DNA from: a virus
Taxonomy: Duplodnaviria; Heunggongvirae; Uroviricota; Caudoviricetes
Virus record (IMG/VR): IMGVR_UViG_3300033993_002218
Coordinates: 1-64,000 of that record
DNA length: 64,000 nt
Direction: 5' to 3' (one strand)
The notes under the pieces: generated by a model
The model's database searches: none
What the model was told of the DNA's origin: nothing
Seen by the model: only the letters and a program-made list of their open reading frames with translations
In this document: piece by piece, positions 7,342-40,108 of the stretch
Layout of the letters: every line of letters begins with the position of its first letter
How positions within the stretch are numbered: the stretch's first letter is position 1
Program-made: the position numbers and the translations under genes

Positions 7342-7464
7342 ACATAAGATTATATAGCACTTATAAAGTACAAATATATTGAAATACTAACATATCATGA
7401 TAGTGTTATATGATGATATTGAGATCTTGTGAGGTTGTGCCAGTTCTTATGGTGGCGCGGGGGG

Positions 7465-7493
7465 TTGACTTTGCGAAGTGAGTGTGTTATAAT
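7465..7493 (+). promoter_or_regulatory. consensus sigma70 promoter on the plus strand (TTGACT-17-TGtTATAAT)
   Basis: TTGACT at 7465-7470, 17 nt spacer, TATAAT at 7488-7493, extended -10 TG at 7485-86. It is the only strong plus-strand signal in the window. Confidence 0.55.
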
Positions 7494-7626
7494 GCGCTCG
7501 CCAAACTTGCATAAGAATCGACCATTTATAAGGCATTATAAGGCATTTAGAAAGCATAAGACTCAAAGTATTAAAAGATAATAACATCATATAACACTAT
7601 CATTATAAAAAACAATTATATATTTT

Positions 7627-7824
7627 TTAATACCTTTTTTTAATTGATACTATTTCTAACTTAGGTTTCCATTGATGAAGACCATGACACTCAACACCTC
7701 TCTTCATCATCTTAACCATTGCTTCCTGTGCGGATTCTAATTCAAAATATACTGCCTTCAGAGTACAATTCATATAAGTGTACTCAACATAGTAGAATCC
7801 TTCCTTAAGTGGATCAAACATCAT
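7627..7824 (-). CDS. hypothetical protein (65 aa)
   Basis: ORF track. ATGA overlap with the upstream gene stop. Confidence 0.45.
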   Translation of the reverse strand: MMFDPLKEGFYYVEYTYMNCTLKAVYFELESAQEAMVKMMKRGVECHGLHQWKPKLEIVSIKKRY

Positions 7825-9510: not shown

Positions 9511-9644
9511 TTGTGAACCTCGTAGTAATCGTACTCAAAATCGGCAGGAAGTTGTGCAGTAGCAGCAGCAAGACAACTTGCAATCACCTTGTACCATGCA
9601 CCATACTCATCGAAGAAGAAGTACCGTTTGGGTCTCATGTTCAT
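9507..9644 (-). CDS. hypothetical small protein (about 45 aa)
   Basis: Hand-translated MNMRPKRYFFFDEYGAWYKVIASCLAAATAQLPADFEYDYYEVHK. It directly follows a cassette. Its stop overlaps the next ATG as ATGA. Confidence 0.35.
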   Translation of the reverse strand: MNMRPKRYFFFDEYGAWYKVIASCLAAATAQLPADFEYDYYEVHK

Positions 9645-9728
9645 GGGAGTGTTCCCTTGACTACCTTTGTATTATAAGGCATCTGGTTCCCCTGTGAAGT
9701 GCCCTGTGTGCCAGTTGTTCAGGTGTCC
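9645..9728 (-). promoter_or_regulatory. intergenic cassette (type A)
   Basis: tgtattataaggcatctggttcccctgtgaagtgccc then tgtgtgccagttgttcaggtgtcc. Confidence 0.55.
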
Positions 9729-10303
9729 AGAAGTGCCAGAATTGCCTTAAGTGTATCCTTAAGTTTCTTGTTTTCTTCCTCAAGTTCTTTAACTTTTTCA
9801 GAAAGTGAAGTGGTATCTTGAGAAGGTTCTTCTTTCCCATCAAGAATGGTTTCTGTTACATTTGCACCCTCAAGGTTGGCACCCTCAAGGTTGGCATACC
9901 TAAGGTCGGCACGATAAAGGTAGGCACCCCTAAGGTCGGCACCCCTAAGGTCGGCACGATAAAGGTCAGCACCCCTAAGGATGGCACCCTCAAGGTAAGC
10001 ACCCCTAAGGTCAGCACCCCTAAGGTCAGCACCCCTAAGGGCGGCACAACTAAGGTTGGCATCCCTAAGGTAGGCACCCCTAAGGATGGCACCATAAAGG
10101 TCGGCACCCCTAAGGGCGGCACAACTAAGGTCGGCACCCTCAAGGTCGGCACCACTAAGGTTAGTACCCCTAAGGTTAGCACTCACAAGGTTAGCACTCA
10201 CAAGGTGAGCACCGCTAAGGTTAGCACCCACAAGGTAAGCACACCCAAGGTAAGCACCCACAAGGTTAGCACCAGGTTTGATTTCGTATCCGTTGATGTT
10301 CAT
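9719..10303 (-). CDS. pentapeptide-repeat protein (about 194 aa) with a C-terminal coiled-coil tail
   Basis: About 28 tandem A(D/N)L(R/E/S)G pentapeptides (GADLRGADLRGAYLEGA...). The ORF-track start is a TTG inside the cassette. The first ATG is MNINGYE. Confidence 0.75.
   Translation of the reverse strand: MNINGYEIKPGANLVGAYLGCAYLVGANLSGAHLVSANLVSANLRGTNLSGADLEGADLSCAALRGADLYGAILRGAYLRDANLSCAALRGADLRGADLRGAYLEGAILRGADLYRADLRGADLRGAYLYRADLRYANLEGANLEGANVTETILDGKEEPSQDTTSLSEKVKELEEENKKLKDTLKAILALLDT
9850..10270. repeat. tandem 15-bp DNA repeat (ggcacccctaaggtc-like) encoding the pentapeptide repeats
   Basis: Near-identical 15-mers seen directly. Confidence 0.8.
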
Positions 10304-14516: not shown

Positions 14517-14642
14517 TTACTTCTTGACATCTCCACCATCAGCAGTTCTTGCGACTTTACCTGCTCTGGATGCTGATCTAAGTAATTTTAAGGCACCTCT
14601 TGCAATAGCAGCACTTTCTTGAAATTGCTGAAAGTTTTTCAT
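14517..14642 (-). pseudogene. truncated copy (41 aa) of the capsid-targeting internal-protein paralogs
   Basis: MKNFQQFQESAAIARGALKLLRSASRAGKVARTADGGDVKK-stop. About 85 bp is near-identical to 15343-15437, the N-terminus of 14673..15455. Confidence 0.4.
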
Positions 14643-14672: not shown

Positions 14673-15455
14673 TTAGTTATTATCCATATCTCTATATGTA
14701 CCCATCGTCTTACCAGTCTTTGGATTCATCTTTGCTTTCAATACCTTCGTATAGATCTTGTCTCTTTTTTCTTTTCCTTTTATTATGTCTTCACCACTCA
14801 TAATTCCTGAAGGTTCTGACGTAACTTTATCACCTGGGTTTGCACCTGCTTTCCATAATGCACTAGGTACGGCACCAACTTCTTTCCTGAAACTTCTACC
14901 TCTTGAGATCAAATCTTCTGGGTCATTTTTAGCATAAGATCTATCACTTAGAATTGCAACATCATGTACTGGTTTTGATGTACGATCACCACCTAACTGC
15001 TTTCTTAATGCTTTTGCGTGTCTTACTATAGATGCAGTTGATCTTACTTTTCTTGTTGCTCTTCCAGATGCAAGATTTTTATGTGGTACTTGATCTATAA
15101 CGTAATCACTTTGATTTTTATAAGTGCGGACCATAGTGGAATGATGAGGTGATGCCCATGCTTCAGTTTCTTTAGGTTGTTCGTTAGGATCACGTCTCTT
15201 GAATCCTGCCTTTTTTAGTACTACTTTATCTGAAATACTTCTTCTAGCATCTAGTCTATCCCATGTATTTTCACCTGGACCACGAGGAGGAACTGCTTTT
15301 GATTTTACATTTCTTGTTGCTCTTGCTGCTGATGTAACTCTTCTTCCACCATCAGCGGTTCTTGCGACTTTACCTGCTCTGGATGCTGATCTAAGTAATT
15401 TTAAGGCACCTCTTGCAATAGCAGCACTTTCGTTAAACTCTTGAAATGTCTTCAT
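14673..15455 (-). CDS. internal-head-protein-like basic protein with N-terminal capsid-targeting sequence (260 aa)
   Basis: MKTFQEFNESA... resembles the T4 IP capsid-targeting sequence MKTYQEFIAE, which is cleaved after Glu by the prohead protease. Basic, low complexity. Paralog of 15452..16276. Confidence 0.65.
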   Translation of the reverse strand: MKTFQEFNESAAIARGALKLLRSASRAGKVARTADGGRRVTSAARATRNVKSKAVPPRGPGENTWDRLDARRSISDKVVLKKAGFKRRDPNEQPKETEAWASPHHSTMVRTYKNQSDYVIDQVPHKNLASGRATRKVRSTASIVRHAKALRKQLGGDRTSKPVHDVAILSDRSYAKNDPEDLISRGRSFRKEVGAVPSALWKAGANPGDKVTSEPSGIMSGEDIIKGKEKRDKIYTKVLKAKMNPKTGKTMGTYRDMDNN

Positions 15456-16931: not shown

Positions 16932-17960
16932 TTATTTTTTTTTGGATCGCAATGAGTTAATTAAGGCAGCTGCACCAGTTAATGCTGCACCAGCAAGTGC
17001 TGCCTTTCCAGATCCTCTTAATTTAATTCTTGGTACTTTAGAAATTGCAGATGGTTTTACTGTAGGAGGTTTTGGTAAAGATGGTGCCTTGGTTTTTGGA
17101 GTTGACTTTAATGCATTCAATGCTTTAGTCTGTGAAGGTCTAGATGGTTTTGCTGGTGCAATTTGTCTTGGTTTACCAAATTCTTTATCCAATTTAATTC
17201 GACTGTCTCTAGGTAAATGCATTCTTTTAGCGTCCATATCAACCAATTCATCCCTACTTGCCCATTTTGGATCAAGATTTCCAGAAAGTGGTGTAATGCG
17301 CTGAGCACCCTTTGCCGCTTGTCTTGGTGATGGATTGCGACCAACATTGGCATATTGCCTTCCTTGCATTCCCGGTTTGCCAAATCCAGCAATCTTAGAG
17401 TATAATTTTGATCTTGTATTACGCTCACTAGTATCGTTACTGATGGGGAAGTTTGTTAAAATTGAGTTACTTGGAATACGTGGAGCAACTTGATTCTTCC
17501 ACATATCTGCAACATTTCTTGCAACAGATCTTGCTTCACCAGGATTATGTCTTCTTTTTCCCGACTGATTATACCACTCAACATCATAAACTGGTTTATT
17601 ACCTTGAGATGGAGCAATCTGATCCTTTTGACGAATTCTCATCTCAAGATCATTCTTAGTATCACGCACTCTCATACTATAACCTGCGTCGGCATCTATG
17701 TCATATTTACCAGTTTTATCAGGTCTTGCATCAAAGTCAGGATTGTTAGCACCTCGACTGACTTCATTTCTTCTTCTACTACCTTGTCTTGCAATTCTAA
17801 AAGCTTGATCCGATGTTCTAGTTGGATCTCTCTTAAATTCACCTTTTTGTCTATAATACGAAGAAGTCGCCTTACCATAAGGAGTCTTTCCTGATGGTAA
17901 GGGTTCATCTGGTTCGTAATATTTTTCTGATATTTCTAAAAACTCTCTAAAAGTCTTCAT
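16932..17960 (-). CDS. internal-protein-like basic protein with capsid-targeting sequence and a Pro/Lys-rich C-terminus (342 aa)
   Basis: MKTFREFLEISE... An exact T4 late promoter TATAAATA lies 24 nt upstream of the ATG. Confidence 0.65.
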   Translation of the reverse strand: MKTFREFLEISEKYYEPDEPLPSGKTPYGKATSSYYRQKGEFKRDPTRTSDQAFRIARQGSRRRNEVSRGANNPDFDARPDKTGKYDIDADAGYSMRVRDTKNDLEMRIRQKDQIAPSQGNKPVYDVEWYNQSGKRRHNPGEARSVARNVADMWKNQVAPRIPSNSILTNFPISNDTSERNTRSKLYSKIAGFGKPGMQGRQYANVGRNPSPRQAAKGAQRITPLSGNLDPKWASRDELVDMDAKRMHLPRDSRIKLDKEFGKPRQIAPAKPSRPSQTKALNALKSTPKTKAPSLPKPPTVKPSAISKVPRIKLRGSGKAALAGAALTGAAALINSLRSKKK

Positions 17961-29136: not shown

Positions 29137-29283
29137 AATACACCAACCTCTTTTAAATAATTTCTGTATCTCATAAACCTTGTGAGACTTGGTTGCCTAG
29201 GAACATCAAGTTGGTGGCAGATTTCCTCATATTGCAACCAAGCACACCAAGGAGTTGTCTCATCAAAAACATGATAAGGATAT

Positions 29284-29493
29284 TCACAATTTTCCACTTA
29301 TTTTCCCTTCATAAGATTTGGATTCAGGGAAACCTTCCTGTCTCATTTTTAGATACCAGCGAGTTGCCGAAATACACTGTCCTTCAGTTAAAGAGGTGAT
29401 GATTTCCTTATCATTCTTGTCATAAGAACTCCAAGTTCCCCACTTCTTCTGAATTACATAGAAGACATCATCAATTAGATTCTCTTCGTTCAT
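29284..29493 (-). CDS. hypothetical protein (69 aa)
   Basis: ORF track. Confidence 0.45.
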   Translation of the reverse strand: MNEENLIDDVFYVIQKKWGTWSSYDKNDKEIITSLTEGQCISATRWYLKMRQEGFPESKSYEGKISGKL

Positions 29494-29598
29494 TTACTTT
29501 CTTTACAGTTTCATGTAGTTCTTTGAGTGCTTCAATTGTCTCAGGAGTTTCTTCCCACTCCCAAGAGTTTCCATTCTTATCCACAAAAGTTCGGGTAG

Positions 29599-29790
29599 TC
29601 ATTCTTTTTCCTCCTTGATTGTAAGGGTATAATCCTTTTTCTTAAACTTACAACGATCTATGTATTTTTGAGCATGTTCTTGAGTTTGAAAGTAACAAGT
29701 TTTCTTGTCCTTCAAATCTTTACCATCCTTATGAACTATTTTTATTGGAAATCCAGAATGTGGAAATTCTTCTTTAACTGGTTTAATCAT
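29599..29790 (-). CDS. hypothetical basic protein (63 aa)
   Basis: ORF track. Confidence 0.45.
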   Translation of the reverse strand: MIKPVKEEFPHSGFPIKIVHKDGKDLKDKKTCYFQTQEHAQKYIDRCKFKKKDYTLTIKEEKE

Positions 29791-29960
29791 TCGGTTCCTC
29801 CATAAAGACGTTGCCCTTCCTCATATCCCATTTGATATGCAGTTCTCATCCATTCTAGCATAGAATCACGATTTTTGGATTCAAAATCATCCCAGAACCT
29901 TTCAGACCTAAAAACAAATCCTTCCAGTTCATAAAACCAATCATCAAATCCTTCGTTCAT
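29787..29960 (-). CDS. hypothetical small protein (about 57 aa)
   Basis: Hand-translated MNEGFDDWFYELEGFVFRSERFWDDFESKNRDSMLEWMRTAYQMGYEEGQRLYGGTE. Coupled by TAATG upstream and ATGA downstream. Confidence 0.35.
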   Translation of the reverse strand: MNEGFDDWFYELEGFVFRSERFWDDFESKNRDSMLEWMRTAYQMGYEEGQRLYGGTE

Positions 29961-30130
29961 TAGTCGTATAGGTTTTGTTGATGTTGTAGTCTATCTATCA
30001 TATCATAGATGTGAGTTTGTGAATAGTCAAATGCACCAAATCGTTGAGGATTCTTATCCTTCATTTTTGACAGCATATTAAGATGATCCCAGTATGTATT
30101 GATTACATACCCATAATGTGCTTCATTCAT
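29960..30130 (-). CDS. hypothetical protein (56 aa). The terminal, non-repetitive member of the Gly/Tyr-rich array operon.
   Basis: MNEAHYGYVINTYWDHLNMLSKMKDKNPQRFGAFDYSQTHIYDMIDRLQHQQNLYD. It has the same RBS (GAAGGAGGGATTGAT-ATG) as the Gly/Tyr-rich genes. The upstream stop is TGA-T-ATG. Confidence 0.5.
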   Translation of the reverse strand: MNEAHYGYVINTYWDHLNMLSKMKDKNPQRFGAFDYSQTHIYDMIDRLQHQQNLYD

Positions 30131-30131
30131 A

Positions 30132-30449
30132 TCAATCCCTCCTTCGGGTTCTTGTGGATATTGTACCGTTACCGTCACCGTAACCAAAACCGTTACCGTT
30201 ACCGTAACCGGCACCGGCACCGTAACCATCACCGGAACCGTAACCGGCACCGTGTCCGTAACCGGAACCGTAACCGGAACCGGAACCGTAACCGGAACCG
30301 GAACCGTAACCGGAACCGTCACCGCCATAGTGACCAAAACCGTTACCGTAACCGTCACCGTCACCGTAACCAAAACCGTAACCGTAACCGGCACCGGCAC
30401 CGTAACCATCACCGGAACCGTAACCTACGGGATAAAAGTATTCAGTCAT
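30132..30449 (-). CDS. Gly/Tyr-rich low-complexity protein, array member 6 (105 aa)
   Basis: MTEYFYPVGYGSGDGYGAGAGYGYGFGYGDGDGYG... Starts at the ATG after the AAGGAGGGATTGAT RBS. The ORF-track upstream extension (VTVTV...) is the cassette and RBS read in frame. Confidence 0.6.
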   Translation of the reverse strand: MTEYFYPVGYGSGDGYGAGAGYGYGFGYGDGDGYGNGFGHYGGDGSGYGSGSGYGSGSGYGSGYGHGAGYGSGDGYGAGAGYGNGNGFGYGDGNGTISTRTRRRD

Positions 30450-30450
30450 A

Positions 30451-30702
30451 TCAATCCCTCCTTCGCGTTCTTGTGGATATTGTACCGTCACCGTTACCGT
30501 AACCGTCACCGTAACCGTAACCGTCACCGTAACCGTCACCGTAACCGTCACCGTTACCGTAACCGTAACCGTAACCGTCACCGTCACCGGAACCGTAACC
30601 GTTACCGTCACCGTTACCGTAACCGTAACCGTAACCGTAACCGGAACCGGAACCGTAACCGGAACCGGAACCGGAACCTACGGGATAAAAGTATTCAGTC
30701 AT
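30451..30702 (-). CDS. Gly/Tyr-rich protein, array member 5 (83 aa)
   Basis: MTEYFYPVGSGSGSGYGSGSGYGYGYGYGNGDGNG... Same RBS. Stop-T-ATG coupling. Confidence 0.6.
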   Translation of the reverse strand: MTEYFYPVGSGSGSGYGSGSGYGYGYGYGNGDGNGYGSGDGDGYGYGYGNGDGYGDGYGDGYGYGDGYGNGDGTISTRTRRRD

Positions 30703-30703
30703 A

Positions 30704-30949
30704 TCAATCCCTCCTTCGCGTTCTTGTGGATATTGTACCGTCACCGTAACCGCAACCGTCACCGTAACCGTCACCGTAACCGTCACCGTAACCGTTACCG
30801 TATCCGTCACCGTAACCGGCACCGACACCGTCACCGTAACCGTCACCGTTACCGTAACCGTTACCGTAACCGTCACCGTAACCGTAACCGGAACCGGAAC
30901 CGTAACCGGAACCGGAACCGTAACCTACGGGATAAAAGTATTCAGTCAT
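30704..30949 (-). CDS. Gly/Tyr-rich protein, array member 4 (81 aa)
   Basis: MTEYFYPVGYGSGSGYGSGSGYGYGDGYGNGYGNGDGYGDG... Confidence 0.6.
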   Translation of the reverse strand: MTEYFYPVGYGSGSGYGSGSGYGYGDGYGNGYGNGDGYGDGVGAGYGDGYGNGYGDGYGDGYGDGCGYGDGTISTRTRRRD

Positions 30950-30950
30950 A

Positions 30951-31250
30951 TCAAGACCTCCTTCGGGTTCTTGTGGATATTGTACCGGAACCGTAACCGT
31001 AACCGAAACCGAAACCGTCACCGTTACTGTAACCGTAACCGGCACCGACACCGGCACCGTAACCGAAACCGTAAACGCCACCGTCACCGTAACCGTAACC
31101 GAAACCGGAACCGTCACCGCCATAGTGACCAAAACCGTTACCATTACCGGAACCGTCACCGTCACCGTAACCGGCACCGTAACTGTGTCCGTCACCGTAA
31201 CCGTTACCGGCACCGGAACCGTAACCTACGGGATAAAAGTATTCAGTCAT
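30951..31250 (-). CDS. Gly/Tyr-rich protein, array member 3 (99 aa)
   Basis: MTEYFYPVGYGSGAGNGYGDGHSYGAGYGDGDGSGNGNGFGHYGG... Confidence 0.6.
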   Translation of the reverse strand: MTEYFYPVGYGSGAGNGYGDGHSYGAGYGDGDGSGNGNGFGHYGGDGSGFGYGYGDGGVYGFGYGAGVGAGYGYSNGDGFGFGYGYGSGTISTRTRRRS

Positions 31251-31251
31251 A

Positions 31252-31503
31252 TCAAGACCTCCTTCGGGTTCTTGCAGATATTGTACCGTTACCGTAACCG
31301 GAACCGTAACCGTAACCGCCACCGGAACTGTAACCGTAACCGTTACCGTTACTGTAACCGTAACCGTAACCGTAACCGGAACCGTCACTGTAACCGTAAC
31401 CGGAACCGTCACTGTAACCGTAACCGTAACCTTCACCGTAACCGTAACCGGAACCGGAACCGGAACCGTAACCGTTACCTACGGGATAAAAGTATTCAGT
31501 CAT
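31252..31503 (-). CDS. Gly/Tyr-rich protein, array member 2 (83 aa)
   Basis: MTEYFYPVGNGYGSGSGSGYGYGEGYGYGYSDGSGYGYSDGSGYG... Confidence 0.6.
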   Translation of the reverse strand: MTEYFYPVGNGYGSGSGSGYGYGEGYGYGYSDGSGYGYSDGSGYGYGYGYSNGNGYGYSSGGGYGYGSGYGNGTISARTRRRS

Positions 31504-31504
31504 A

Positions 31505-31612
31505 TTAATCCCTCCTTCGGGTTCTTGTGGATATTGTACCGGAACCGTAACCGTAACCGTCACCGGAACCGTAACCGTTACCGGCACCTACGGGATAAGA
31601 GTATTCAGTCAT
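31505..31612 (-). CDS. Gly/Tyr-rich protein, array member 1 (35 aa, shortest)
   Basis: MTEYSYPVGAGNGYGSGDGYGYGSG... It is the first gene after the terminator at about 31626-31657. GGAG lies 8 nt upstream. Confidence 0.5.
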   Translation of the reverse strand: MTEYSYPVGAGNGYGSGDGYGYGSGTISTRTRRRD

Positions 31613-31625
31613 AAGAAACTCCACA

Positions 31626-31657
31626 AAATAAAAAAGGGAGGAAGTAAATTCCTCCCT
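31626..31657 (-). terminator. intrinsic terminator (minus strand) upstream of the Gly/Tyr-rich array
   Basis: GGGAGGAA-TTTAC-TTCCTCCC followed by TTTTTTATTTTG on the minus strand. Confidence 0.7.
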
Positions 31658-31667
31658 CAAAAACACA

Positions 31668-31997
31668 TCACTTACCCCAGTTTTCGTCAACAGGGACAGT
31701 GAAAATCACAGAACCGGCAGGAACCCGAACAGGATAAGGAGAAGTCTTGAGGGTCACTTTACTGTCCTTGGGATTTGCAAGAACACCAGTGAAACCGATA
31801 GATTCCCAGCGGAAAACGTGAATGGCATTATGAATTATCAGTTCGCCAGTGACATCATCGGTCTCAACGTTACCGGCAAAAATCCATCCACGGTCAATGA
31901 CCACCACAGAGCGATCACCAGTAGGAACAGAAGTAGAACCAACGGGAACATAAGTAACACCGTTGATTTCAATAGTAGAAAGAGAAGCAGTCGTCAT
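31668..31997 (-). CDS. hypothetical protein (109 aa), beta-rich
   Basis: ORF track. Confidence 0.55.
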   Translation of the reverse strand: MTTASLSTIEINGVTYVPVGSTSVPTGDRSVVVIDRGWIFAGNVETDDVTGELIIHNAIHVFRWESIGFTGVLANPKDSKVTLKTSPYPVRVPAGSVIFTVPVDENWGK

Positions 31998-32068
31998 AAC
32001 GTTTGTTTGATTACCTGTGTATTATAAGGGATTGAAGGGGGTTTGGGAAGGGGTCTTGTGCCAGTTGT

Positions 32069-32461
32069 TCAGGTGTCCTCATCATCTGGAAGGAAAATCA
32101 AAGTAGGTTTTTGATCTTCCTCATACCTTGAATAACCAATAAACTCTCCAGGATATCCATCAACATAAGGCATAATCCATTCAAAAAACTTTTGAATCTC
32201 CTGACCATAGTTTTTAATGTCCCCCTTACCAAGAAGAGACCACCGTTGAGTGATACCGTCGTAGGTTAGCGAACGACAATGGGTATCAGGAGTGTAACAA
32301 CTGCCAGAATAGAACATACTACCCCACCTATCAGGATAAGGTTCCAAAACTTTTTCGTCACTTTCTTCCATATCACACATTACCTTCAACACCTCAATAA
32401 TCTCATCAGGTGTATCTTTTTTGAGATCCACATTAACGTAGATTTCAGTGTACATTCCCAT
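32069..32461 (-). CDS. hypothetical acidic protein (131 aa, trimmed start MGMYT)
   Basis: The cassette-derived N-terminus MLYDTLIHTRN is trimmed. AAGGAAC lies upstream of the internal ATG. Confidence 0.55.
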   Translation of the reverse strand: MGMYTEIYVNVDLKKDTPDEIIEVLKVMCDMEESDEKVLEPYPDRWGSMFYSGSCYTPDTHCRSLTYDGITQRWSLLGKGDIKNYGQEIQKFFEWIMPYVDGYPGEFIGYSRYEEDQKPTLIFLPDDEDT

Positions 32462-32539: not shown

Positions 32540-32917
32540 TCAGGTGTCCTTGTCAATCATATCACCAACAAGGTCATTAAGTTGATCAAACATTTTTTTA
32601 GTAAATGGAACTGTTTTTACCTTACCAGTTTCCACATCATCTGCCATTTGCATCAAACTTTCTAGAAACTCTTTTGGATACACATCGTCGTCATTCAAAC
32701 TAAACCAAAATTCAACATAACACTGCTCAAATGGAACATCATCTTTTAGAAGAGTATAATGTTTTTGATTATCCTCAAACCACACTAAGTCCATCCAAGT
32801 GATAAAGTTATGACGAATAGATTGCCATCCGGTCATCCAGCAATGTCCGATGTAGTAGTCCCACAAAGACATCTTAACTTTATTCTTATTAGTTCCTAGA
32901 AGTGCTTTTGAAAACAT
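32540..32917 (-). CDS. hypothetical protein (125 aa)
   Basis: ORF track. The start could be the internal MSLWD. Confidence 0.5.
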   Translation of the reverse strand: MFSKALLGTNKNKVKMSLWDYYIGHCWMTGWQSIRHNFITWMDLVWFEDNQKHYTLLKDDVPFEQCYVEFWFSLNDDDVYPKEFLESLMQMADDVETGKVKTVPFTKKMFDQLNDLVGDMIDKDT

Positions 32918-36690: not shown

Positions 36691-38064
36691 TCAGACAATT
36701 ACAGAAGCATTGTATCGGACTTCATCAAAGGTATACTCTTTGACGATTTCACCATTCTCAAACACAGTCTCAAGAACTTCTTCAGCATCAGTCCTACCTT
36801 CCAAGTCAGTGAAATAACCTTCATCATTACGATAGAGTGTTACACGACCTTTCTTGGATTCTTTACCCATATCGGTAATTGGACTCTTATACACATCTCT
36901 CTGTTCTCCTTTAACTTCAATTGAAGAACACTTCATTGCAAACTTCTGAGTATCACGGTCAATACTTTGAAGAAGTTTACCACCTTGACCGAAGGCAATG
37001 TTGTCTGCAGAATATCCAGCAGTCATTGCTCTATAAAGAATTCGGTCAATCGTATCTTGAGTGATACCATCACCTTGAATAATACGGACGTGATTAAGAA
37101 CTTTGAATCCTTTATCATTTACCGTGTGTCCATAGTGACTATCAAGAATCTTAAGGCACTCAGTTACAACTTCTGGAGGATAACCACTATCAGGACGAAC
37201 CACAAGAGTTGCACCAGAGTTGATTACATCATCCTTGAGAACAGTGCCCCACATATGGCAGGCATCGTAAATGTTATAACTATCACTTACGCAAGCAAAG
37301 AGACTGTTAGGTTTGCCGTAGATTTTTACCATATTACGGTAAGAATCTTCTTCACCCTTTCTACCCCAAGAAGTCACGGTGCTGTGTTCCATAGCAGGAA
37401 TAGAGAATCCTGCAATATCAATGTTGTAGTATTCTTTACCATAAAGCAAAGCACTTACCGTATCAGTTCCCTGAAAGTTTACAAGGTGTGCGAGACCACC
37501 AATACCAGCAGACTCGAAGGAAGATACACCACGAGCACCGAAATCGTGAAGTTTGAACTCAATCGTTCTGGGATCTCCAGTTTTCATCAAGTAATCGTGA
37601 ATGATTCTCTTACTTTCGTAGGAGTTGGTAGCAACAGTAGTTCCGTACCAAATACTCCTGAGAAGTGCAGTCTCAATATAACTTGTCAACCAAGCACATT
37701 GAGGGTCAGTATTTTCAACAGTAGCAAGAACATTCTTCACAGGAATTACAGAACCTTCAGGAACTGCTTTGATGCGAATAGGCAACTTACCACCATATTC
37801 ACGAAGAATATATTCCCAACCTTCACGATTGAAAGGTTCTCCGTGTCCCCCAGCAATTAGTTCAGCAAAATCAATATCTTCCTGAGTAATAGGATTAGAA
37901 AGATACTCCTTTAGAAAGATTTGAAGACCGAAGAAAACAGTTTGTTTCCAACTACCTCCACGACTTTCAACATAGGAATATACGTTCGTAGTCCCTTCGG
38001 GATACTGATTGTATTGCGAAAACTTGTAAGAATCTGTGTTTGTGATAATCGTTTTGTTAATCAT
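36691..38064 (-). CDS. nadV: nicotinamide phosphoribosyltransferase (NAMPT/NadV), 457 aa
   Basis: The N-terminus ...TDSYKFSQYNQYPEGTTNVYSYVESRGG and overall length match the NAMPT family. Shine-Dalgarno TTAAGGAGTTTAAA-ATG. Confidence 0.9.
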   Translation of the reverse strand: MINKTIITNTDSYKFSQYNQYPEGTTNVYSYVESRGGSWKQTVFFGLQIFLKEYLSNPITQEDIDFAELIAGGHGEPFNREGWEYILREYGGKLPIRIKAVPEGSVIPVKNVLATVENTDPQCAWLTSYIETALLRSIWYGTTVATNSYESKRIIHDYLMKTGDPRTIEFKLHDFGARGVSSFESAGIGGLAHLVNFQGTDTVSALLYGKEYYNIDIAGFSIPAMEHSTVTSWGRKGEEDSYRNMVKIYGKPNSLFACVSDSYNIYDACHMWGTVLKDDVINSGATLVVRPDSGYPPEVVTECLKILDSHYGHTVNDKGFKVLNHVRIIQGDGITQDTIDRILYRAMTAGYSADNIAFGQGGKLLQSIDRDTQKFAMKCSSIEVKGEQRDVYKSPITDMGKESKKGRVTLYRNDEGYFTDLEGRTDAEEVLETVFENGEIVKEYTFDEVRYNASVIV

Positions 38065-38146
38065 TTTAAACTCCTTAAAATGTGGATAATGCCTTCGGTC
38101 TATCCAAAGGACTTTTGTGTGTTAATGACTGTCACCTGTCAAAGTT

Positions 38147-38326
38147 TCATTTACCTAAAATAATATCTAAAAGGGTTCTTTTCTTTTTTGGTTTAGGTTC
38201 TTTTATTTTGGGTCTTTTCTCCGGTGGATTGATAAACTTAACCCCGAAATATTCCTCAAAAAACTTTATCCGAAGTTTAGGGTCGTTAAGTATTTTTCTA
38301 AGTCTTGGACTTATAACACCTTTCAT
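38147..38326 (-). CDS. hypothetical small basic protein (about 59 aa)
   Basis: Hand-translated MKGVISPRLRKILNDPKLRIKFFEEYFGVKFINPPEKRPKIKEPKPKKKRTLLDIILGK. The competing plus ORF 38082..38336 is a less likely call. Confidence 0.3.
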   Translation of the reverse strand: MKGVISPRLRKILNDPKLRIKFFEEYFGVKFINPPEKRPKIKEPKPKKKRTLLDIILGK

Positions 38327-38332
38327 TTTAGT

Positions 38333-38584
38333 TTAACACCTAAATTGCTCTTTACCACCGTGAATATTATTCAACACTTGTTGATGTTGAGGTGGTCCTG
38401 CTTGAGGGTCAATATCGTGCTTAAAAACAAGAGCGAGATGACTTTGGATTAAGTCAACTTGTCTTTTGCTTAATCCTTCTGCTCCTATATCACCGTGCAA
38501 TTCAAAATAACCCTGTAACCAATAACAAAACTCAGTTGCTTTCATAGTAGATAATGTGTTATAGAACAAGTTCAGGTTTACCAT
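38333..38584 (-). CDS. hypothetical protein (83 aa)
   Basis: ORF track. Confidence 0.45.
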   Translation of the reverse strand: MVNLNLFYNTLSTMKATEFCYWLQGYFELHGDIGAEGLSKRQVDLIQSHLALVFKHDIDPQAGPPQHQQVLNNIHGGKEQFRC

Positions 38585-39086
38585 CTAAATCCTCACGCAA
38601 AGCAGTGAGAACTTGACCCAACCAATTAGTTCCTTGCCAATTAGCAGGATTTTCAATCTCTTTCTCATAACCACCAAGACCCACACCCCAAACAGTATCA
38701 GTAGGTGATGCTTCAACCAGATAATAACCTTTAGTTTCCATCAGGTAATTATAAGCATCTTCATTTTGAGTGAACTTATAAAAGCATCCCTCATAAACAA
38801 TTTGCCTTGCGTGATTATCCCAAACTTCCTTATTGAAGTTCTTGACTTTACGACCAAGTGCTTTCTGGTCTCCTGGAAAGGTTTTCTTCATAATCTTTCG
38901 AGCAATATCAAGGTCATTAAAGAGTAATGCCTTCTTATGCATCATATACTGTTCGGCGCAGTTATATGGGTCTCCACTTCGGGTATCTAGAAAAGGAGTA
39001 TCCGCCCAGTTTGATAGGAACCCATTATAGAAAAAGACATATTGACTATACTTCTCTAGAAAGTTTTGTTCTTTGAATTGCATCAT
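38559..39086 (-). CDS. NADAR-domain (YbiA-like, DUF1768) protein, about 175 aa
   Basis: Trp/Gly-rich core ...YNCAEQYMMHKKALLF...WGVGLGG...NWQGTNWLGQVL typical of NADAR. Trimmed to MMQF with GGAG upstream. Confidence 0.7.
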   Translation of the reverse strand: MMQFKEQNFLEKYSQYVFFYNGFLSNWADTPFLDTRSGDPYNCAEQYMMHKKALLFNDLDIARKIMKKTFPGDQKALGRKVKNFNKEVWDNHARQIVYEGCFYKFTQNEDAYNYLMETKGYYLVEASPTDTVWGVGLGGYEKEIENPANWQGTNWLGQVLTALREDLDGKPELVL

Positions 39087-39088
39087 TG

Positions 39089-40108
39089 TTATACTCCGGT
39101 AAAATAGTTGATGATTTCGTAATGGTCTTCGTAGCACTCACTTGGATTGATTTTGGAAATTGGAATCCATTTTGCAGATGTAGCATCACTTCCACCTTTG
39201 ACTTTTGGAAGTTCTCCGTTAGGAAGTTTGATGTGAAATGCATGAGTGATTGTCCTACCTCTGGTGCTTCGTTCAATCGCATCAAAGACTTTTGCTTCTG
39301 CTATATTACCACGAAGAACTGGAGCAGGCACCTTGAGTTGAGTTTCCTCCCTCACTTCCCGTATCATAGCATCCTCTAGGGACTTGTCGCTTAAAGCGTC
39401 TAGGAACCCTCCAGGAAGGGCAAGGAGACCCTTTCCAGGTTCTGCCCGACGACGAATCATCAGAATGTGCCCACACTGCACTACGACGGCATCCACCGTC
39501 ACGAAGGTTGGGGGATATGGGAAAGAAGCATACTGAGACTTATATTTTTCAACAAAATCAATCTCTCGGAGAATTTGGTCGTAATCCTCTGTCTTAGAAA
39601 ACTTATTGAGAAACTCCAGAACTTCTACTGGAATGACACTCTTAATAAAGTTTGGGTTGTAGTCCTCTTTGAAGTAGAGTTTTCGGATTTGAGATGCACT
39701 CAGTTCTTCAATCAAAGGGACTTCAATTAGGTCCCACTGAGGGAACATATCAAGATAGAAAGAAGTCTCATCTTTCTTGTATCCAATAATTCCAACTTTA
39801 ATGTCTTCAAAGGGATTGATTTTATTCACAATACTTTGAACTCTAGATACCCAAGCATCATTGTTGTAGATGGTATCTTGAATTGGATGAATGCTATAAC
39901 TAGCATTTACCATCATTAAAGTTTCGTTGATTAAATATTCCCGTTCATCATAAGAGAATGGGTTCTTAAAAGTTCTGGGTTGATTTGCAGACCCCACAAT
40001 AATCGCAGTGTGTTCTGCAAGTTCTGTTGCCCGTTTGATAATCTCTAGGTGAGCATTATGGAACGGTTGAAACCGACCAATAAAAACAATTACATCATAT
40101 TTTTTCAT
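39089..40108 (-). CDS. natV: bifunctional NMN adenylyltransferase / Nudix ADP-ribose pyrophosphatase (NatV/NadM-Nudix type), about 339 aa
   Basis: FIGRFQPFHNAHLEI is the (H/T)xGH nucleotidyltransferase motif. GGFLDALSDKSLEDAMIREVREETQL is a Nudix box. The start is trimmed to MKKYD behind TAAGGAGTTTAGAATT-ATG. Confidence 0.85.
   Translation of the reverse strand: MKKYDVIVFIGRFQPFHNAHLEIIKRATELAEHTAIIVGSANQPRTFKNPFSYDEREYLINETLMMVNASYSIHPIQDTIYNNDAWVSRVQSIVNKINPFEDIKVGIIGYKKDETSFYLDMFPQWDLIEVPLIEELSASQIRKLYFKEDYNPNFIKSVIPVEVLEFLNKFSKTEDYDQILREIDFVEKYKSQYASFPYPPTFVTVDAVVVQCGHILMIRRRAEPGKGLLALPGGFLDALSDKSLEDAMIREVREETQLKVPAPVLRGNIAEAKVFDAIERSTRGRTITHAFHIKLPNGELPKVKGGSDATSAKWIPISKINPSECYEDHYEIINYFTGV

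Follow-up and report, generated by a model that had tools for sequence, protein, structure and literature searches.

Proteins of the Sm/LSm/Hfq type assemble into rings, and Gly-rich tails are a frequent companion of the barrel, as in the RG tails of SmB, D1 and D3 and in Acinetobacter Hfq, where barrel and repeat belong to one chain. Low-complexity domains of the FUS type combine a Gly/Ser/Tyr composition with disorder, and their phase separation is driven by Tyr-Arg and Tyr-Tyr contacts. Hexanucleotide DNA repeats encode (Gly-X)n polypeptides in the silk fibroin heavy chain (GAGAGS/GAGAGY) and in the C9orf72 dipeptide repeats, while cyanobacterial arrays of precursors of ribosomally made peptides with post-translational modifications (RiPPs), such as the prochlorosins and the Gly-rich GrrA/triceptides, consist of adjacent small paralogues with fixed ends and a hypervariable middle. 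Here we describe an array of six small Gly/Tyr-rich (GY) genes, GY1 to GY6, in a 64,000 nucleotide stretch of viral DNA (Caudoviricetes; positions 1 to 64,000 of IMG/VR record IMGVR_UViG_3300033993_002218), called the window below. The six genes are very probably tandem paralogues of gene B of a conserved two-gene phage module, in which gene A encodes an Sm-like barrel and gene B a disordered (Gly-X)n protein. Low-complexity proteins rich in Tyr count as rare among prokaryotes and phages, and the GY family is unusual in that a survey of low-complexity regions from both found aromatic residues to be strongly under-represented (PMC6821194).

The array is 1.3 kb of near-pure hexamer repeat, for which Tandem Repeats Finder reported a period of 6, 215.5 copies and the plus strand consensus ACCGTA; the coordinates of its genes are listed in Table 1. 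An earlier note, made from the sequence alone, had recognized the hexanucleotide repeat and had described six minus-strand genes, of the lengths in amino acids (aa) given in the table, with MTEY[F/S]YPVG heads. The strand reading and the list of open reading frames (ORFs) agree with that description, and the head is present in 6/6 copies. All six copies also end in the tail GTIS[T/A]RTRRR[D/S], which the note had missed; since there are four Arg in every tail, plus Glu3 near the start, its statement that Asp is the only charged residue does not hold. Its account of identical ribosome binding sites (RBS) and TGA-T-ATG junctions stood in part. The site GAAGGAGG precedes GY2 to GY6 and the 56-aa gene that follows the array, and each junction consists of a stop, a single T and an ATG, but the site of GY1 is weak and the stops comprise five TGA and one TAA.

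Between head and tail, the core follows a strict (G-X)n dipeptide period with occasional register slips, and is composed of 49% Gly, 20% Tyr, 10% Ser and 8% Asp, with no Gln. No (G-X)n run of six or more was found elsewhere in the 64 kb window. The isoelectric points (pI) of GY3 to GY6 lie between 4.05 and 4.85, and the AlphaFold2 model of GY5 has no secondary structure and a low mean predicted local distance difference test score (pLDDT; Table 1), so that the protein is predicted to be disordered. The GY proteins resemble FUS-type domains in part in their Gly/Ser/Tyr composition, and also in their (here predicted) disorder, and those of cyanophages also combine Tyr-rich and Arg-rich segments in one chain. 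Unlike FUS, they have a strict two-residue period, are Asp-rich and acidic, lack Gln, and are encoded as proteins in their own right, 35-105 aa long (elsewhere 22-140 aa), in bacterial and archaeal viruses. With silk fibroin and the C9orf72 repeats they share a hexanucleotide DNA repeat that gives (Gly-X)n, whereas X is Tyr/Ser/Asp and not Ala/Ser/Arg, and translation begins at an ordinary ATG with a Shine-Dalgarno sequence. Charge repulsion and the disorder predicted by AlphaFold2 would argue against beta-crystallites. A comparison of the GY proteins with PDB sequences gave only low-complexity matches, for example to a GR20 dipeptide repeat.

Directly upstream of the array lies a gene for a 109-aa protein, likewise absent from the earlier note, which is a divergent form of gene A. 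Its AlphaFold2 model (pLDDT 86, from an alignment of 34 sequences) has a predicted Sm fold, a strongly bent five-stranded barrel. In most phages gene A is DUF6948 (PF22253), an uncharacterised phage and prophage domain, and the DUF6948 loci resemble the pair in the window both by remote homology and by the (G-X)n gene downstream. In tblastn searches the most distant relatives of the 109-aa protein (L015 to L019, 30-33% identity) were clear DUF6948 members; hhalign of the 109-aa family profile against DUF6948 members gave a probability of 92% (E 5.8e-7), and Foldseek against the BFVD viral models returned a 'DUF6948 domain-containing protein' (E 3.4e-4). The N-terminal motif IEINGVTY is common to both, and the core motif DRGW...AGD...NA.HVFRWE of the window protein can be set against RTYSAGV.FG...NARR.W.W of DUF6948. 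These results suggest that the partner is a divergent DUF6948 and Sm-fold protein at the level of fold and profile only. The homologues from L015, Pectobacterium phage Sabo and Chlorobiaceae phage CV-1-33 match the DUF6948 Pfam model at E 1e-30 to 1e-34, and that of Sabo has sub-threshold Pfam matches only to SM-ATX (E 0.05) and LSM14 (E 0.15).

Compared with the Sm/LSm/Hfq proteins that carry Gly-rich tails, barrel and repeat are separate polypeptides here, the repeat is acidic Gly-Tyr/Ser/Asp and not RG or GGFGGQ, and the 109-aa protein has neither Sm1/Sm2 motifs nor an LSM-type match in Pfam. It had no PDB sequence match, and tblastn against cultured phages found none. The family falls into 177 clusters at 90% identity; at 50% identity it has 284 representatives, and all are annotated as 'hypothetical'. 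Some of its members have fused architectures: P0121 and P0122 contain two Sm-like barrels in one chain, P0197 joins an XRE-type helix-turn-helix domain to the barrel, and in P0150 (L129 3001-3462) the barrel has a short GY stretch before it in the same frame, and a GX gene is lacking downstream. These fusions hint that the barrel may serve for oligomerisation or docking, and the tandem barrels of P0121 and P0122 hint at self-association. A 3189-aa protein, P0242, has 19 partial matches to profile positions 8-47 of the Sm-like domain. The N-terminal motif GVTYVPVGS of the 109-aa protein (31940-31966) resembles the GY head EYFYPVGS, which could reflect shared origin, strand mimicry or chance.

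The pairing of the two genes is not peculiar to the window. The 109-aa partner stands directly 5' of GY genes in 13/13 of the IMG/VR loci retrieved with it. One of the related loci, L009 (IMGVR_UViG_3300012000_000035; L002 524-1132), has a 202-aa HNH-like gene, resembling those of homing endonucleases, between the Sm-like and GY genes, and keeps both parts. A scan of one genome per prokaryotic species yielded 80 DUF6948 loci, 74 of which had enough downstream sequence to be evaluated. At 71 of the 74 loci there was a (G-X)n run of at least six whose start fell in the span from 60 nt before to 400 nt past the end of the DUF6948 match, usually only a few nucleotides from that end; the coupled frame is also Gly-rich at the three exceptions and at four loci to which the script had assigned a wrong frame. 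Most of these loci have no other (G-X)n run elsewhere, and the background rate is therefore near zero. The genomes are those of Firmicutes, Proteobacteria, Bacteroidota, Acidobacteria, Cyanobacteria, Planctomycetes, bacteria of the candidate phyla radiation (CPR) and Archaea. The start ATG of gene B usually overlaps the conserved Trp codon that ends the DUF6948 gene, and such start-stop coupling was seen in nearly all loci.

Among cultured phages, every DUF6948 gene inspected is followed by a gene, overlapping its stop, for a (G-X)n protein of 70-107 aa. The gene is annotated as hypothetical in Sabo, is unannotated between gp84 and gp83 of Iodobacter phage phiPLPE (L022 1173-1409, EU876853.1), and in CV-1-33 is annotated in the wrong frame (gene_25, beginning MAMAMALAMAL...; L020 2827-3084, MT192033.1). 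Blastn of the Sabo module against E. coli genomes found none, and there is thus no E. coli model. In three Bacteroidota loci, L090 (1978-2670), L093 (3270-3944) and L094 (from about 1264), the (G-X)n run is fused to a conserved C-terminal domain of ~150 aa with the motifs ...YYIDNIPC...FAHG...LTGSC..., for which no Pfam or PHROG match was found. Together with the fused barrels, this would suit a GX chain that works as a flexible multivalent element. The analysis established a near-obligate gene pair, translational coupling, constraint at the protein level, predicted disorder of B and, from the models, an Sm-like fold of A.

The residues at X were counted in 78 loci (L015-L102). Ser (33%), Tyr (29%) and Asp (25%) together make up 88% of the X positions, followed by Asn (5%) and Phe (3%), with each other residue at about 1% or less. 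Gene B encodes a mostly acidic dipeptide repeat, predicted to be intrinsically disordered, in which X is almost only Ser, Tyr or Asp; the B proteins outside cyanophages are 22-140 aa long with a net charge of -3 to -14 and no Arg tail. The Gly codon is uniform within a locus and differs between loci (GGC, GGT or GGG), GGY accounting for 90% overall, and the Ser codons of the GX cores are TCY in 626 of 657 cases, AGY in 27 and TCR in 4, four loci using AGY. Because X is limited to Ser, Tyr and Asp while the Gly codon and the Ser codon set vary between loci, the repeat pattern points to selection at the amino acid level, probably combined with homogenisation within each locus.

The same regularity bears on the quite improbable alternative that the functional entity is the repeat RNA or DNA itself, either as a (GGY-NNY)n transcript that serves as platform or sponge for the Sm-like protein or as a tract for recombination or slippage, with the peptides incidental. 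The partner's Sm-like fold, the extreme nucleotide regularity described above and the fact that all three frames of the repeat are open in the ORF list would suit such an entity. It does not account for the restriction of X to Ser, Tyr and Asp, given that Thr, Ala, Pro, Val and others fit GGY-NNY equally, nor for the differing Gly codons and the four AGY loci, the coupling of the start to the upstream stop in nearly all loci, or the fusion of protein domains in the GX frame (L090, L093). The codons of the head and tail argue against it as well. Across 21 distinct GY genes, taken both from the window and from contigs related to it, differences in head and tail were mostly synonymous changes at third positions, with Thr as ACT/ACA/ACC/ACG, Phe as TTT/TTC, Pro as CCC/CCT/CCA, Val as GTA/GTT/GTC, Ile as ATA/ATT/ATC, and Arg as CGT/CGA/CGC and AGG/CGG. 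Since this variation is synonymous, the GY frame appears to be the translated one, with the head and tail peptides under purifying selection, which answers the question of whether the true product lies in another frame. The RRR codons of the tail double as the Shine-Dalgarno sequence of the next gene, while the T-I-S-T-R-T stretch before them is free of that constraint.

Codon usage would also fit a device at the level of translation, the ORFs acting as a sink or sensor for tRNAs Gly-GCC, Tyr, Asp, Asn and Ser-GGA, for instance after the action of tRNA-cleaving defences. NAY codons are read by queuosine tRNAs; about 60% of the X codons are NAY, and half of all codons are GGY. This reading, which is pure inference, leaves the obligate Sm-like partner and the conserved head and tail unexplained, and there are no tRNA genes in the window; we regard it as highly improbable.

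A non-functional expanding microsatellite, or an artefact of assembly, might be suspected in 1.3 kb of near-pure hexamer repeat, a concern that the earlier note had raised and that is effectively refuted. Metagenome contig L120 is 100% identical to window positions 32862-31113, with GY1 and GY2 identical, and contig L111 is 99.8% identical to 29246-30601, with GY6 identical. Since these independent contigs reproduce parts of the array at 99.8-100% identity, it is not an assembly artefact. The gene boundaries, head and tail are under apparent purifying selection, and the module is conserved across phyla.

The note had further predicted that array length and copy number would be unstable, and the comparison of related phages that it proposed bears this out. 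In L112, L116, L127 and L128 the flanks are 94-98% identical to those of the window, yet the number and lengths of the GY genes differ. Among related loci there is one GY copy in L007, L008 and L014, at least two in L009 and L013 (where the contigs end), three in L005, L006, L010, L011 and L012, four in L108, at least five in L128 and six in L004 as in the window. The array thus appears to turn over quickly, with copy number varying between near-identical phages. In the cyanophage clade, gene B appears to have gained the fixed MTEYFYPVG head and the Arg-rich TISTRTRRR tail and to have been amplified to 1-6 translationally coupled, fast-turnover copies, and a hairpin with a T-run between A and B seems to have replaced the overlapping stop and start of the DUF6948 loci.

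That hairpin had been reported in the earlier note as a terminator before the array, and our terminator scan located it between the partner gene and GY1 (Table 1). Its stem (31658-31634) has 10 pairs, 5 of them GC, and is followed by TTTTTTATTTT. A hairpin with a T-run occurs at the equivalent position in 10/10 of the cyanophage loci examined, with about six distinct stem sequences, and looks like an intrinsic terminator or attenuator. In the window, L004, L005, L007, L008 and L012, almost every form of the hairpin combines a 5' arm of the GGAGGG type with a 3' arm of the CCCTCC type, so that the arms look like a Shine-Dalgarno and an anti-Shine-Dalgarno sequence; this is not the case for the hairpins inside the promoter cassettes described below.

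Upstream of the partner gene is a promoter-type cassette, from which an A/C-rich leader without a Shine-Dalgarno sequence runs to the ATG at 31997; the same cassette lies 5' of the partner gene in L004, L007, L009 and L012. The window contains 18 copies, all on the gene strand, against 0.32 expected by chance. The layout of about 70 nt comprises GGACACYTGAASAACTGGCACARG, often a GGGCAC...GTGCCC hairpin with TTT, and then GCCTTATAATAC, and the cassettes stand about 20-30 nt ahead of start codons. They are the source of the recurrent 'PVLQVSSL' and 'CPCAGSSSV' fragments in spurious ORFs, and the repeated cassette is probably the early promoter/terminator of the phage. Because the next one downstream of the array is only at about 28585, a single transcription unit probably takes in the partner gene and its hairpin, the array itself and another five or six small genes, and transcription would reach the array by read-through of the hairpin.

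The 56-aa gene after GY6, whose RBS comes from the tail of GY6, had been viewed as a partner that closes the operon. It does share the junction, but it does not close the unit: small genes on the same strand continue past it, with starts and stops overlapping or close. Nor is it a conserved partner. Its homologue in Synechococcus phage DSL-LC02 (55% identity) has no array adjoining and directly follows the homologue of window gene 32540-32917, and the arrays of L004 and L005 precede unrelated genes, the 56-aa gene being absent there. It appears to be a neighbour in the same transcription unit, outside the conserved module.

The window consists mostly of small minus-strand genes. It encodes NAMPT, a NadM-Nudix protein, NADAR, CpeT, an RNA ligase, a nucleotidyltransferase of the CCA-adding type and a DEAD-box helicase, which shares 71% identity with its counterpart in the freshwater Synechococcus phage S-SRM01 and 44-48% with those of marine T4-like cyanophages. 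A megablast search with the 8 kb surrounding the array had no match among phage genomes, and thus no cultured phage corresponds to it at the DNA level. From the helicase identities and the lack of a cultured DNA match, the window appears to be part of an uncultured freshwater T4-like cyanomyovirus. Genes for NAD salvage form a cluster (Table 1). Two ORFs have their first ~37 aa in common (MK.FQ.F.ESAAIARGALKLLRSASRAGKVARTADGG), and a third shares only the opening MKTF.EF with them; the proteins of the second and third had no Pfam match. In L004, pentapeptide-repeat genes lie on both sides of the module (7406-7762 and 9564-9881), and the copy in the window is 20 kb away from it.

Table 1. Positions of the array genes, their flanking elements and other features of the window.
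Feature	Position	Strand	Remarks
GY1	31612-31505	minus	35 aa; RBS weak (GGAG only); head MTEYSYPVG; strand reading, ORF list, direct scan
GY2	31503-31252	minus	83 aa
GY3	31250-30951	minus	99 aa
GY4	30949-30704	minus	81 aa
GY5	30702-30451	minus	83 aa; AlphaFold2 mean pLDDT 30
GY6	30449-30132	minus	105 aa
56-aa gene	29960-30130	minus	shares the array junction
109-aa predicted Sm/LSm-like beta-barrel protein, divergent DUF6948 relative	31668-31997	minus	AlphaFold2, hhalign, Foldseek, synteny
GC-rich hairpin GAGGGAGGAA/TTCCTCCCTT with T-run	31624-31658	minus	between partner gene and GY1; terminator scan
Promoter-type cassette: GGACACCTGAACAACTGGCACAAG, spacer, TATAAT at 32026-32021	32021-32079	minus	sigma-70-like scan 10/12
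Cassette copies (ends of motif)	6164, 9721, 10377, 14506, 22692, 24905, 28585, 32071, 32542, 36113, 36683, 40217, 40614, 44268, 48198, 51153, 56793, 58054	minus	18 copies
NAD salvage cluster	36691-40108		
NAMPT	36691-38064		
NADAR	38559-39086		
NMN adenylyltransferase-Nudix	39089-40108		
First ORF with MK.FQ.F. opening	14517-14642		
Second ORF with MK.FQ.F. opening	14673-15455		no Pfam match
ORF with MKTF.EF opening	16932-17960		no Pfam match
Pentapeptide-repeat gene	9719-10303		

The DUF6948 loci have neighbours such as Erf, RecT, RusA, SSB, methylases, Gp157, integrase and helix-turn-helix regulators, and neither a third recurrent partner nor a modifying enzyme was found among 107 neighbour proteins. 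This bears on the very improbable reading of the array as RiPP precursors, in which head or tail would serve for recognition, and an enzyme of the host, or one encoded at a distance in the phage, would cross-link or hydroxylate the Tyr-Gly-Asp/Asn/Ser units, as in triceptides, GrrA or prochlorosins. The Y-G-D/N/S triplets resemble three-residue cyclophane motifs, and tandem paralogues with conserved ends and hypervariable cores are what such arrays look like. Cyanophages also carry many peptide-modifying dioxygenases of unknown substrate (PMC2938197). However, no radical SAM enzyme, dioxygenase, LanM, protease or transporter was found among about 50 window proteins or the 107 neighbours, no precursor model matched (NCBIfam NF033849 reached 10-14 bits against a cut-off of 650), the 'leader' would be merely 9 aa, and unrelated phages, which are spread over many phyla and lack such enzymes, have the module in single copy. 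With a maturase absent from the vicinity we rejected RiPP precursors.

No family in Pfam, NCBIfam, PHROGs or PADLOC corresponds to the GY proteins, which gave only sub-threshold low-complexity noise (TrAA12, keratin, a Ser-rich protein); in PADLOC, neither they nor the Sm-like protein had a match at E up to 0.1. A tblastn search with a GY protein gave nothing either, owing to the low-complexity filter. No searchable paper mentions DUF6948, and nothing was found on cyanophage Gly/Tyr-rich proteins or on low-complexity Gly/Tyr condensates of phages, in agreement with the statement of the earlier note that no phage system of this kind has been described. A toxin-antitoxin or defence system was rejected on the lack of a PADLOC match and the presence of up to six copies in a lytic T4-like phage. 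A virion fibre or collagen-like protein was rejected on the location in an early/replication region, the small size of the proteins, and a repeat that is dipeptide and not tripeptide.

For the function of the module, we tentatively propose, at somewhat less than even odds, an assembly of an Sm-like hub and a multivalent Tyr-rich polymer that acts early in infection. The unit would be transcribed from the repeated cassette, taken as an early promoter, and the Sm-like protein would form an oligomeric hub. The GY proteins would be multivalent sticker-and-spacer polymers, in which Tyr provides the stickers and Gly the spacers of a chain with acidic core and basic tail, and would dock on the hub, perhaps via the head. 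Hub and polymer together may build up a higher-order structure, similar to a condensate or a gel, in which RNA or a host factor handling nucleic acids is captured, and in cyanophages the Arg tail, set against the acidic core, could favour higher-order assembly alongside Tyr. How much polymer is made per hub would depend on leaky termination at the hairpin and on the gene copy number. The condensate, matrix or decoy that the earlier note suggested fits a composition of Tyr stickers, Gly spacers and an Arg tail, although the note had not seen the widespread module behind what appears to be a lineage-specific amplification. Taken as a whole, the identity of the two-gene module together with the assembly mechanism is our best explanation, with a probability of roughly 0.5.

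The main rival, which we consider unlikely, is that gene B encodes an acidic aromatic decoy. The (G-D/S/Y)n chain would mimic single-stranded nucleic acid, with Asp in place of phosphate and Tyr in place of a base. Alone or together with the Sm-like protein, and with no need for a condensate, it would fill the binding sites of a host or defence protein, for instance SSB, RecA, Rho, RNase E, Hfq or a nuclease. T7 gp2.5 and E. coli SSB, whose C-terminal tails are acidic and aromatic, provide a precedent. The cores are strongly acidic both in the window and outside cyanophages, and the module has genes for Erf, RecT, SSB and RusA around it, in the early region. On the other side, the DNA mimics known to us are folded, a decoy leaves the cyanophage Arg tail and the need for an Sm-like partner unexplained, and no match to PADLOC or to an anti-defence family was found. 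The Sm-like protein Rof is a further precedent, as it blocks the RNA site of Rho and so inhibits it (PMC10491184).

Several observations weigh against the module identity or the hub and polymer assembly. The 109-aa protein had no match to the Pfam model of DUF6948 at E up to 1. The DUF6948 proteins are near neutral, with a median pI of 6.5, unlike basic RNA binders. The lack of an Arg tail outside cyanophages means that a mechanism dependent on Arg cannot be ancestral, and part of the conservation of the tail is at the nucleotide level, given the overlap of RRR with the next Shine-Dalgarno sequence. The TCY and GGY bias leaves room for homogenisation or constraint of the nucleotide sequence, and a terminator before the array would lower, not raise, its transcription.

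The module is abundant, with DUF6948 alone forming at least 7,992 clusters at 90% identity, yet gene B is absent from Pfam, NCBIfam and PHROGs, and GenBank records either omit it or give it in a wrong frame. The module is distributed over phages of Firmicutes, Proteobacteria, Bacteroidota, Cyanobacteria, CPR bacteria and Archaea, and the cyanophage arrays appear to be an amplified, fast-evolving variant of it; no known kind of system fits. The pairing suggests a function to look for in a large family of uncharacterised domains, for which the arrays offer a natural series of copy numbers and lengths, and the near-obligate association with an Sm-like protein gives a concrete way to ask whether low-complexity polymers serve bacterial viruses in organising or disarming the cell. 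It is possible, though doubtful, that viruses of bacteria and archaea widely encode a two-part organiser, an Sm-like hub with a dipeptide polymer, that acts as a condensate or gel or as a polyanionic mimic and reprograms, early in infection, how the host handles RNA or DNA. The arrays of the cyanophages would then be its fast-evolving, dosage-amplified, Arg-tailed version, whose evolution an arms race with the host may have shaped. If this is true, sticker-and-spacer low-complexity proteins would be an ancient viral invention and not a eukaryotic speciality.

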